The notes under the pieces: model-generated | Databases searched by the model: none | What the model saw: the letters and a program-made list of their open reading frames with translations, nothing else | Told to the model about the DNA's origin: nothing | Translations under genes and position numbers: made by a program | In this document: piece after piece, positions 13,937 to 21,200 of the stretch | Position numbering within the stretch: position 1 is the stretch's first letter | Layout: every line of letters begins with the position of its first letter | Source: Octopus vulgaris | Lineage: Eukaryota | DNA length: 64,000 nt | Assembly: GCA_951406725.2 (NCBI GenBank) | Contig: OX597815.1 | Coordinates: 55,366,001 to 55,430,000 of the forward strand | Direction: 5' to 3'

Positions 13937-14827
13937 ATGTCCAGAACCTGGAAACGTGACGAACTGGCGTGGTTCCTGCGAGGATGGCAATGCGCTGACG
14001 GAGAAAATCCAAATAATATAATTACGGCTGCGCTGAAGAACAACGGATAAAAAAGGACGTCAGCTCAAATAGAGCGGAAGAAGCAAGAATTTATACGCTC
14101 CTACGCACTTGTCAGATCGCACATTAACACGCTGGATGCCATTTTTGACAGCGAAAAACGCGAACAAAGTAAAGATGGCAAGGATAGAGACGCGGGCGCT
14201 GATGAGGAGGGTCACCCCCACCTGGTAGACGCCCAGGAAGAAAACTCCAGTGAGAGGCCTGCCCGGGAGATGAACCCAGGTGCGGATGCTCCTACCAGCA
14301 CCAAAAGCCATGGACATGGAGATGAAAAAACCAAAAAAGGAAGAAAAACTGAAACTAAAACACAGACAAAGCCAAGGAGCAAGGCAGCCAGGGATAGAGG
14401 CAAACCTAACTATCCATATGCCAAAAAGGATGGACACAAGCAGCGCACACGGGTATGTAGGTTCTACCTGAAAGGTGCCTGCCGGCATGGAGAGGAAGGT
14501 GCAGGCTGCCGCTTTGCACATCCGGGACCCTGCCACAGAAACCAACCACCGAAAGGAAATGGGATGGACCACGCATCACCTGCCCCAAAACGGAGGTACG
14601 CAGATGTGGTGCGTACCACAAACCACCAACGTGTCGTTGAAAGGGCAGCTGCTGAGCAGGAATCTTTTTTGTGCATGGCACAAAAGATTGTACAGCAGCT
14701 AACCTGGCACCATCAGGCTCAGGCTCGCAGATGGAACTGCCCACAGTTCACAAGACCGCCACAGCAGATGGACCCAGGGTGGACACCGCCGGCAACAGCA
14801 TACACCTCACCTCGATGCTCCTACTGA
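13937..14827 (+). pseudogene. LINE ORF1 (Myb/SANT-like N-terminus plus CCCH zinc finger) with one premature TAA at 14048-14050
   Basis: MSRTWKRDELAWFLRGW...KRTSAQIERKKQE, then CRFYLKGACRHGEEGAGCRFAH. In frame with track ORF 14270..14827 and homologous to the ORF starting at 18293. Confidence 0.8.
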
Positions 14828-18292: not shown

Positions 18293-21200
18293 ATGGCAAG
18301 AAACTGGTCTGCGAGAGAGGTGCAATTGTTCGTCCGTGCTTGGAGGATTGCTGAGGACGACTCACCGAACAACATTATTGCTGCGGCGCTGAAAAGCAAC
18401 AATTTTTCGAGAACCACCGCCCAGATAGAGCGAAAGAAGAGAGAAGTTATCCGTTCGTACGCTCTAATCAGGCAACATGTGGACACCCTGGACATCATCC
18501 TGGGAGGTGACGGCAGCAGGGAGGGCCAAAAGGATGAGGAAAGCATCCAGAGCCAAATGGAGAAGCCTGGAACACAGGGAAACGATGACACATGTCCAGC
18601 TTCCAACACCACAACTGAAGACCAAAGAGGTGCGATGGCCGCAAGAAAGGAAAGGCACCCTGGAATTGATGGGAAGCAGGAGGTAAAGGGTGACAGAATC
18701 AAGGCTAAAGGAAGCCCTGTCCAGAGAAAGCAGAGGGACCCCAGCAAAAACTGTAAGGGCAGGGAAAGAAACACCTGCAAATTCTACCTGAGGGGGGACT
18801 GCTAGTACGGCGTCGAAGGTGAAAACTGTCGCTTTGCACATCGGAGGCCCTACCAAAACCGCACGGACGCGAGACAGAGGTCCCTCCCTCAGGGAGAACA
18901 AAAACAAAAAGAAAAAGTTAAAAGAAGGGAAAAAAGCGCACTGACCACTACTGAAAGACAGTATGCAGATGTGGTGTGCGGAAACCCAACGGGTGGCCAG
19001 CTTCACCCAGATGTGAGAAGGGCGGCAGCTGAACAGCAATCTTTTTGTGCATGGCACAAAAAATTGTTCAGCAGCTGACCTGGCTACAAGCACAAAGCTG
19101 GAACTACCACCACATAAGGCCACCTCCAACAGATGCAGGATGGCCACCACAGACACCAACACCAACACACACACCACAAAAATATTTCTACTGAATGTAG
19201 GAGGGCTGCTGCGTGGAAACTGTAAAAAGAAAATTTCATTCCTGAGAGACCTTGTGGCATGCAGTCGGGCTATATGCATGGCACTCACAGAAACGCATCT
19301 TGAACCCGATATAGGTGATGCAGAAATACACAGTCATACGCACAGATAGAAAAGGGAGGAGCCATGGTGGAGTTGCAATGTACATCCGAGATGACCTCAC
19401 GCCCCAGGTCCTGCTGTCATATTCAAACTCAGTATGTGAAACTCAAATTGTACACATAAGACAACTGAATATCGTCATATGCACTACATATCGCCCACCA
19501 GATGCCCCAAAACACTCAGGCATGTTTGAAGACTGCCTAACAAAAATAGAAGTCCTCACCAACCTTGAACAGCACAACAGTGTATTCTTCATGGGTGACT
19601 TTAACCTCCACAATGTGGAATGGCCTGGGGGGCAGATGCTCCCAGGGATGACACACCATCAGCAGGCACAGGTGGAGTCCCTGCTCCATCTCACAAATGC
19701 CTCTTTCATGGAGCAAATAGTTCTGCAACCAACAAGGGCAGATAATATACTGGATCTCTGCTTCACAAACAATATGGATATTATCCATAATGTTAATGTG
19801 ATGCCGACAATGATCTCGGATCACAACATAATAGAGCAGTCTATGTATGGAACAAAAGCCCCTGCAGACACACAGCCTATACGAAGCACCCACCATCTCT
19901 CCAACTTAAACTTTCATAAAGCCAACTGGAAGTCGATTGAGAAAGAGATCCTCAAACAGGATTGGCCTGAATGTCTCTCCACACCGGACATAAACATGAA
20001 ACACAAACACTTCATGTCCATAATACAAGCCATATGTGACAAATATGTCCCAATGTGCAAGGCCAGCACACACAAGAACAAAAACAGGATCCCTAGAGAA
20101 AGGAGGATTCTTATGAGACGACGGACAAGGATTGCAAACCGCCTGAGCAAGCACACCAAAAGTGGTGAGAAGTCTCGGCTCGAAAGAATGCTAATGGAAA
20201 CTGAGAAAAGTCTACATCAGTCCCATGAAAAGGAGAGAACAGATAAAGAAGCTTGGGTAATAGAAAATATAAAATCAAACCCTAAAGCTTTCTTTAAGTT
20301 TGCCAAAGAGACAGCCACAGTGCACCAGAGAATAGGACCTCTCTTCCAAAAAGATGGCTCTCTCACAGGAAATCCCACGAGAATAAGTGAAATACTGAAC
20401 GAACAGTTCCAAAGTGTGTTCACTACACCTCTAGGACACAGGCAAGTAAACAACCCAGAAGAATTCTTTGCCACTTTACCAGCGGCCAAAGAGACAAAAT
20501 TGAGTACATCAACATCGAAGATGATGATATCACACTAGCCATTGATGAGATTGACACAAACTCAGCTGCTGGACCTGATGGATTCCCAGCAATCCTTCTC
20601 AAATCGTGCAAACGAGCCCTTGCAAAACCGCTACAGCTTCTTTTTCAGAGCTTTCTTGCAAGTGGTAAGCTCCCAGTCAAACTGAAAGAGGGGGTAATAT
20701 GCCCTATCCATAAGGGAGGTAGCAGAGCAGATGCTAAAAATTATAGGCCTATCTCTCTGACCTCACACATCAGCAAAGTCATGGAACGAATAGTCCGTAA
20801 GAAACTAATCATGTTCCTTGAAGAAAACGACTTACTGTCTGACACCCAGCATGGATTTCGACCAGGTAGAGGCTGCCTAACACAGCACCTGCAACACTAT
20901 GACTGGGTGTTGAAACAGCTACTAAATGGCTCAAATGTGGATGTAATATATCTCGACTTTGCAAAAGCCTTTGATAAAGTCGACCATGGTATGATCTGTC
21001 ACAAGCTGCGTGGTCTCGGCATAGGCGGGAAACTTGGAGAGTGGCTACACAACTTCCTAAAAGACAGAAAACAGGCAGTTGTGAGCAATGGAACCACCTC
21101 CAAGGAAACGCAAGAACTACAAGAACTACAGGCCAAGAACTACAGACCTATCTCTCTCACCTCACACATCAGCAAGGTCATGGAACAAATAGTCAGAAGG

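Follow-up and report, generated by a model that had tools for sequence, protein, structure and literature searches.

What kind of retrotransposon carries a Myb/SANT-like domain and CCCH zinc fingers in its first open reading frame (ORF), how are its two ORFs expressed, and why do its copies lie in (TA)n arrays? These questions are raised by a 64,000-nucleotide stretch of the Octopus vulgaris genome (GenBank assembly GCA_951406725.2, contig OX597815.1, positions 55,366,001 to 55,430,000 of the forward strand), here called the window, in which an earlier reading of the DNA (the original prediction) had described two divergent copies, with ORF1 at 13937 and 18293, of a CR1-group long interspersed nuclear element (LINE) encoding such a protein. 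On balance we favor the view, drawn from sequence comparison, that these copies represent young octopus LINEs, likely of the CR1 group, that combine a Myb plus CCCH ORF1 with a likely -1 frameshift fusion of ORF1 to ORF2 and a preference for (TA)n.

Both window copies, here A and B, contain all the motifs named in the original prediction, namely the W..xE...W / NNII.AALK / RT.AQIERKK.E.IRSY block, C[RK]FYL..G.C..G.EG..CRFAH and YADVV, and the linkers between them diverge as described: the proportion of nonsynonymous differences (pN) between A and B is 0.57 in the linker versus 0.28 in the Myb domain and 0.22 in the CCCH finger. The two ORF1s are indeed divergent (34% identity by BLASTP, E 1e-38), but A and B did not age apart from a single element: they come from two separate young families, and each is ~97–98% identical to other genomic copies. 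A search of the 2.8-Gb genome gave at least 150 scored matches for family B and at least 133 for family A. Fetched copies define families A (with subfamilies A1 and A2), B and C, and a search with the Pfam profile PF13837 (Myb_DNA-bind_4) added families D and E; of 20 hand-picked PF13837 loci, 18 led to D or E ORF1 starts and the other two are E-type ORFs (one seen in part). All five families encode an N-terminal Myb/SANT-like domain and one to five CCCH fingers in an ORF1 of 300–420 amino acids, and their ORF2 products span 37–70% identity (70% between A and B, 62–63% to C and 37–38% to D/E). Both ORFs are intact in 7/20 A1, 4/19 A2, 6/20 B, 8/14 C, 2/5 D and 2/13 E copies, these loci having been picked for open frames and not being a random sample. 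Because near-identical copies exist, the families have been active recently. Among named proteins, the nearest come from O. vulgaris and O. sinensis; for ORF2, the nearest named relative comes from Argonauta.

The N-terminal domain of ORF1 is very likely Myb/SANT-like, as judged from profile matches and predicted structure. PF13837 matches 18 of 20 A/B domains below its cut-off (best E 1e-4), and the homologous D/E domains, found in high-copy genomic repeats, score 27–41 bits, over the curated cut-off. Across 17 sequences from the five families, residues R3, W5, E9, W17, Q44, K48, H62 and L66 do not vary. AlphaFold2 predicts a three-helix, helix-turn-helix bundle (helices at 7–19, 25–35 and 42–60), with a predicted local distance difference test score of 77.5 from a narrow alignment and 89.3 (predicted template modeling score 0.73) from a five-family alignment. 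Conserved residues in helix 3 and the basic charge of the domain are no more than indirect signs of putative sequence-specific DNA binding by that helix. The best fold matches of this model are RAD-MYB (Z 7.4, root mean square deviation 2.6, 58 residues), the SANT domain of DNAJC2, TEAD4 and GT-1, the top matches being Myb/SANT, TEA and GT-1 domains at Z 6.5–7.5, graded middling. When 1.84 billion representatives were searched with the profile, 100 matches had E <=0.001, and those inspected are either Myb/SANT-like proteins or fragments of octopus-type ORF1, four of which combine Myb with CCCH; hhalign assigns a probability of 97% to a library match with a Myb/SANT-like sequence pattern. ESM Atlas scores of 0.82–0.90, with Myb clusters at 0.87, are leads only, and a sequence search of the PDB with the domain returned noise only (E >=0.012, top matches including GCN4 fusions, ribosomal S8 and haemagglutinin). 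The nearest non-LINE matches of the octopus profile are Myb_DNA-bind_4/trihelix proteins (PF13837; host and Harbinger-type), which have the same sequence signature and predicted fold, whereas the octopus domain has a shorter helix 1–2 loop and sits in a retrotransposon ORF1. Membership in Harbinger was rejected on structure, and there is no DNA-transposon context here.

Purifying selection acts on the Myb domain. The ratio of nonsynonymous to synonymous substitution rates (dN/dS) is 0.08–0.21 in Myb versus 0.38–0.48 in the linker for the four of seven pairs with unsaturated dS; between copies A and B, the comparison proposed in the original prediction, dS is saturated. The atypical ORF1 architecture of that prediction, Myb/SANT-like plus CCCH, finds support in Pfam, AlphaFold2, fold searches, selection and its occurrence in five families.

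Behind the Myb domain, families A, B and C have one CCCH finger (C-x7-C-x8-C-x3-H), D has two (C-x8-C-x4-C-x3-H in both) and E has a tandem array; from what is known of this domain family, the fingers would bind RNA. Searches with the CCCH array led to five unnamed proteins and to ten loci from metagenomes (an initial metagenome scan, its query from family E, had no match), and these relatives share with the octopus ORF1 both the array and a downstream F-L helix. Relatives that keep their N-terminus have a PHD-like domain in place of Myb, according to weak PHD matches (E 5e-4 to 0.3) in four N-terminus-bearing locus ORF1s and one of the five proteins. The Myb profile had no match among the CCCH relatives (best E 0.1), some of which are N-terminally incomplete, and Pfam scans of 13 ORF1s from families A–E found no RRM, CCHC, Tnp22, PHD or esterase domain, the modules of CR1-group ORF1 types I–IV.

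An ORF2 tree rejects a single clade for the Myb-bearing families (approximately unbiased test, p-AU 0.010; 10 rows, with Tx1, L199 and close duplicates left out and one long branch), and in a tree with an outgroup A, B and C fall among PHD-type rows, subject to a long-branch warning. The simplest reading would be the transfer, within octopods, of a 5' module carrying Myb between element lineages. Short-range 5' exchange is visible because A1 and A2 differ at dS 0.9–1.7 in Myb but only 0.03–0.17 in ORF2, and because A1, B and C share 5' untranslated region (UTR) sequence though their ORF2s are only 62–70% identical, which suggests 5' UTR swapping between families. The start (C)AAGATGGCG (window 12453–12465) is common to full-length A1, B and C copies (L103, L105, L083–L099, L125–L140) and has what we take to be a YY1-like core; other A1 copies start with ACTTCCGG, presumably ETS-like.

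The remainder of the element is consistent with the CR1 group. ORF2 has weak Pfam matches to Exo_endo_phos and Exo_endo_phos_2, a match to RVT_1 (E 1e-28) and no other domain, indicating an apurinic/apyrimidinic-type endonuclease (APE) and a reverse transcriptase (RT), and its homologues carry PF14529 and PF00078. No RNase H or C-terminal CCHC finger was found (only RVT_1 on an 815-amino acid part, and no CCHC pattern), features that the CR1 group typically lacks as well. The 3' UTR of families A–E forms two hairpins, the second with family-specific stems, and ends in tandem repeats of AATC, TTAAGGA, AAAAGAGT, ATCAAAGT or ATCTAAGTTT. By structure, namely domain content and 3' end, these families are likely CR1-group LINEs, as originally proposed; the trees cover only the sequences gathered in this analysis. 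The R2 clade was rejected, the elements having two ORFs and an N-terminal APE, not a restriction-like endonuclease at the C-terminus.

ORF2 lies in the -1 frame and is open from an in-phase slippery heptamer to the endonuclease in all five families. The heptamer is T TTT TTG in A and B, A AAT TTT in C and T TTT TTA in D and E; U-UUU-UUA is the HIV-1 frameshift site. Among copies with an ORF1 of at least 290 codons and a recognizable endonuclease motif, the -1 frame and in-phase heptamer are found in 20/20 A1, 18/19 A2, 19/19 B, 9/9 C, 3/5 D and 2/5 E, the D and E misses having indels near the junction. In A, B, D and E the -1 frame opens only 1–4 codons upstream of the heptamer. Of the ten metagenome loci, nine extend to the junction, and in all nine ORF2 is in the -1 frame behind an in-phase heptamer, which is T TTT TTA in eight and the variant G GAT TTT in one (L199). 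Given the x-F-L peptide and each lineage's own codon usage, the joint chance of these codons in eight lineages is ~1e-13, a figure that is optimistic owing to shared ancestry; the background heptamer rate is 0.0023 per codon. No AUG occurs from the frame opening to endonuclease motif I in seven lineages (families C and D, L193, L195, L198, L199 and L200). Because of the -1 frame, the in-phase heptamer and the missing AUG in these lineages, we consider it probable that ORF2 arises through -1 frameshifting, as part of a Myb-CCCH-APE-RT fusion. A distinct young CR1-type family, F (L231–L240; for example L233:2950–2963), has an (ATT)n tail and a cysteine-rich ORF1 (PHD-like by eye); its ORF2, without an early AUG, lies behind G GGA AAC TAA, a candidate -1 frameshift site.

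The elements prefer (TA)n for insertion, and we hold this with confidence. Of 78 copies, 56 have a 3' junction leading into TA (four loci were dropped because no tail could be placed), compared with 6.6% of positions in the window and 12.7% of those in far flanks, and 5' junctions lie in TA in 38/66 by a rougher test (six skipped). Because full-length 5' ends directly adjoin TA, these flanks reflect insertion and not tail growth. A Myb-less CR1-type family of the same genome has TA at 6/34 3' junctions (Fisher p 1e-7), and a Tx1 control, an old family and a weak control with 29 loci, has TA flanks at none of the eight loci whose 3' end was placed by eye. The (TA)n association noted originally for the window copies applies to all of them and, measured against these two controls, to the genomic copies. 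Excerpts of PMC4640811 describe target-specific elements that lack long terminal repeats (non-LTR elements) as coming mostly from early-branched, Tx1 and R1 groups.

In the mechanism that we propose, most ribosomes would stop at the ORF1 stop codon and release free ORF1 protein, which would bind or package the element RNA through its CCCH fingers. A minority would slip at U-UUU-UUA/G or A-AAU-UUU and produce Myb-CCCH-APE-RT, which as one product would travel to the DNA, where the APE endonuclease would probably set the exact TA cut. Because it occupies the place of the PHD-like domain in the metagenome relatives, Myb would most likely act as the tether of the complex to DNA or chromatin, a role to which we give even odds.

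Several observations weigh against this account or parts of it, and some of them favor other explanations. PF13837 scores the A/B domain alone at 20–22 bits versus the curated 27, the window-family CCCH fingers also match Pfam below cut-off, and the choice of loci with open frames tells against it as well. Foldseek found no match to the Myb domain with E <=0.001 and fold Z stays under 8, so the fold class is broad (Myb/TEA/homeodomain-like). These low scores and the short helix 1–2 loop would suit a generic three-helix bundle for oligomerization or protein binding, with only superficial likeness to Myb, and SANT domains often bind protein rather than DNA; with the D/E homologues over the Pfam cut-off, R, W, E, W, Q and K invariant over five families and the hhalign match, we think such a bundle quite improbable. 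AUG codons are available at some ORF1/ORF2 junctions: in family A one coincides precisely with the start of the endonuclease and overlaps the stop codon of ORF1, in B and E a single AUG lies within the leader, and in L196 the frame opening itself has one. The U-UUU-UUG of A and B has a weaker last base. No conserved stimulatory RNA structure was found 3' of the slip site in 12 representatives (z -2.9 to +1.5; hairpins, not pseudoknots), and long-range pairing of the slip site with the 3' UTR is not preferred (best rank 4–91 of ~610–660 windows, 9/11 representatives with a 3' UTR). The family A AUG and the failure to find a stimulator would agree with separate translation of ORF2 by re-initiation, at an AUG or non-AUG codon at or near the ORF1 stop, with F-L kept for the ORF1 protein and Myb present only in free ORF1 protein; SART1 uses an overlapping stop-start (excerpts of PMC3894237). 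We find this distinctly unlikely in view of the seven lineages without AUG, a -1 frame kept open over 45–113 codons, the fixation of codons and not of residues alone, a family C whose peptide has changed (RNF) yet whose valid heptamer A AAT TTT is kept, and a family D whose ORF1 stop lies well upstream of the endonuclease. Joining of the ORFs in the RNA, whether a polymerase slips on the T run or the transcript is spliced, could draw on the six-T run of A, B, D and E and on genomic copies with indels in the run (window copy B, L142), but C (A AAT TTT) and L199 (G GAT TTT) have only four T. Contigs of four runs guessed to be RNA, which cover the ORF1/ORF2 junction and are not proof of transcription, contain no indel at the run and no GT-AG joint, rare variants dropping out of contigs; one low-depth contig skipped 14708–14851. 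Among the runs listed as containing the sequence, none is recorded as RNA. We judge RNA-level joining to be highly improbable.

The Myb domain itself might be the (TA)n reader, joined by the frameshift to APE-RT and converging on the zinc finger-Myb-RT layout of R2. In favor of this, TA ends are found in all five Myb families and for the most part not in the Myb-less one, the domain has a basic net charge (+2 to +6), and Myb occurs in the two ORF2 lineages that do not form one clade, both of which prefer TA. The five-family Myb profile also matches the R2 proteins 9nl3_A and 9dou_A (profile positions 2–53, E 0.8–1.1) in what is presumably the R2 Myb domain, a possible donor, at noise level and ranked below unrelated matches. 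Despite its Myb domain, family E has TA at only 4/9 3' ends, and A2 at 8/15. The Myb-less control cannot separate Myb from APE because its endonuclease differs too, and the APE endonuclease, the standard rival, is an equal or better candidate. We regard TA reading by Myb as rather doubtful, and slightly more doubtful still the wider scenario in which octopod LINEs independently built R2-like targeting, with Myb replacing PHD, spreading between two distant ORF2 lineages by 5' exchange, being fused through an HIV-type -1 frameshift and steering the element to (TA)n; in that scenario the frameshift would also be an old and widespread route of ORF2 expression in this CR1-like branch.

The window holds three LINE copies of this group, all flanked by (TA)n. 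Copy A is a full-length element (12453 to ~17850) with a 1.5-kb 5' UTR and one premature stop in each ORF, and copy B is a chimera of family-B sequence (18256–21113) joined to an A2-type 3' part (21130–22585). The original prediction was silent on these broken and chimeric states, as it was on the -1 frameshift signature and on the CCCH array common to PHD-bearing relatives. The copies are laid out as follows.

9232–10283, reverse strand: 5'-truncated family C copy (C-terminal part of RT and 3' tail), TA arrays on both sides, 98% identical to full-length C copies.
10283–12437, no strand: 5' flanking (TA)n array of copy A.
12453–13936, forward strand: copy A 5' UTR, beginning with CAAGATGGCG, the start common to full-length A1, B and C copies.
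13937–14827, forward strand: copy A ORF1, 296 codons, premature TAA at codon 38 (14048).
13943–14134, forward strand: copy A Myb/SANT-like three-helix domain.
14456–14521, forward strand: copy A CCCH finger, C-x7-C-x8-C-x3-H.
14597–14611, forward strand: copy A YADVV motif.
14665–14671, forward strand: copy A in-phase slippery heptamer T TTT TTG, the ORF2 (-1) frame opening 3 codons upstream.
14656–17760, forward strand: copy A ORF2 frame, first APE motif at 14815, RT YADD at 16849, TGA break at 15310.
17786–17848, forward strand: copy A 3' UTR, with a pair of conserved stem-loops and, in place of poly-A, a short tail of tandem repeats.
17849–17932, no strand: 3' flanking (TA)n array of copy A.
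17933–18114, no strand: palindromic insertion resembling a miniature inverted-repeat transposable element (MITE), between copies A and B and outside the LINE.
18256–21113, forward strand: family-B copy (copy B), truncated inside the 5' UTR, preceded by (TA)n at 18219–18258, 98% identical to B copies.
18293–19194, forward strand: copy B ORF1, with Myb at 18299–18490, CCCH at 18776–18841 (TAG at 18803) and YADVV at 18962.
21130–22585, forward strand: A-type (mostly A2-like) 3' part of RT with its tail, joined behind copy B; (TA)n follows at 22585–22789.

At its ORF1/ORF2 junction copy B has lost one T of the T6 run, leaving T5 at 19042–19046. At its chimera junction (21113–21130) a short stretch of CAAGAACTA is repeated and the RT sequences overlap by 370 bp, for which a template switch or a nested insertion with loss of B's own 3' end are candidate readings. 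The copy A 5' UTR has splice-donor-like (12963–12980) and long polypyrimidine (13500–13830) sequences, a putative UTR intron. The insertion at 17933–18114 is a 182-bp near-perfect palindrome within the TA array; locus L010, ~265 kb away, has the same A-tail/TA/B arrangement without it, which suggests a segmental duplicate and later insertion of the palindrome. Elsewhere in the window are a satellite of 387–400 bp (1–7128, ~18 copies, 96–97% matches), a short ORF at 29009–29317 that we take to resemble a hAT/Charlie-type transposase N-terminus, an old stop-broken Tx1/L1-type LINE (55184–58550; APE, RT and C-terminal cysteine motif) and a large MITE-like inverted repeat (58850–59500) with degenerate (CCCTAA)n/(TTAGGG)n runs in its arms.

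Several known systems resemble these elements in part. CR1-lineage LINEs with PHD-type ORF1 (types III and V) likewise have two ORFs, APE and RT and an N-terminal reader module in ORF1, and the ORF1 modules given for 448 Jockey-superfamily elements are PHD, RRM, CCHC, Tnp22, esterase and zf/lz (excerpts of Metcalfe and Casane 2014, PMC4120745). The terms CCCH and Myb have no occurrence in PMC4120745, PMC13343379, PMC5203782 or PMC11203168, nor SANT in the first three. CR1-Zenon, from molluscs and crustaceans, is also a CR1-group APE-RT element, but excerpts of PMC13343379, PMC6740152 and PMC10294476 describe it without ORF1, with a poly-A end and as rare in cephalopods; it was rejected here on the intact ORF1 and tandem-repeat tails. 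In R2 a zinc finger and Myb on the RT polypeptide contribute to target recognition (excerpts of PMC13708176), a combination that the predicted octopus fusion would repeat. R2 has a restriction-like C-terminal endonuclease, whereas the octopus elements have APE, Myb before CCCH and a fusion only through frameshifting. R2 also has one ORF and another type and order of fingers. The Dictyostelium elements TRE5-A and TRE3-A are APE-type LINEs whose ORF2 reportedly requires -1 frameshifting, and the TRE5-A ORF1 protein interacts with TFIIIB, a precedent for a role of ORF1 in targeting; they differ in host, ORF1, tRNA gene targets, a C-terminal zinc finger and an oligo-A tail (excerpts of PMC5911963). 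By analogy, the octopus elements would likely work as CR1-group LINEs with TRE5-like expression and possibly R2-like targeting.

Bonar et al. 2026 (excerpts of PMC13282606) report 13 CR1 families with recent activity and 169 consensus sequences of CR1 in O. vulgaris, and those excerpts contain no ORF1 domain, frameshift or target analysis. Families A–E are probably among these CR1 families and may be catalogued as consensus sequences without the present description. An excerpt of PMC5009743 mentions only HeT-A and TART among non-LTR elements, and our search of the open literature, with Repbase and Dfam outside it, found no description of a Myb or CCCH LINE ORF1 or of a CR1 frameshift.

These families add an ORF1 type, Myb or PHD plus CCCH, that is absent from the published CR1-group classification. 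They are young, high-copy elements with intact members in octopus, where LINE activity draws current interest, and an APE-type element that prefers TA repeats and has a separable, predicted DNA-binding module bears on gene insertion based on retrotransposons. If the fusion is true, ORF1 domains would be part of the integrating enzyme, which would explain the presence of chromatin and DNA readers such as PHD and Myb in ORF1.

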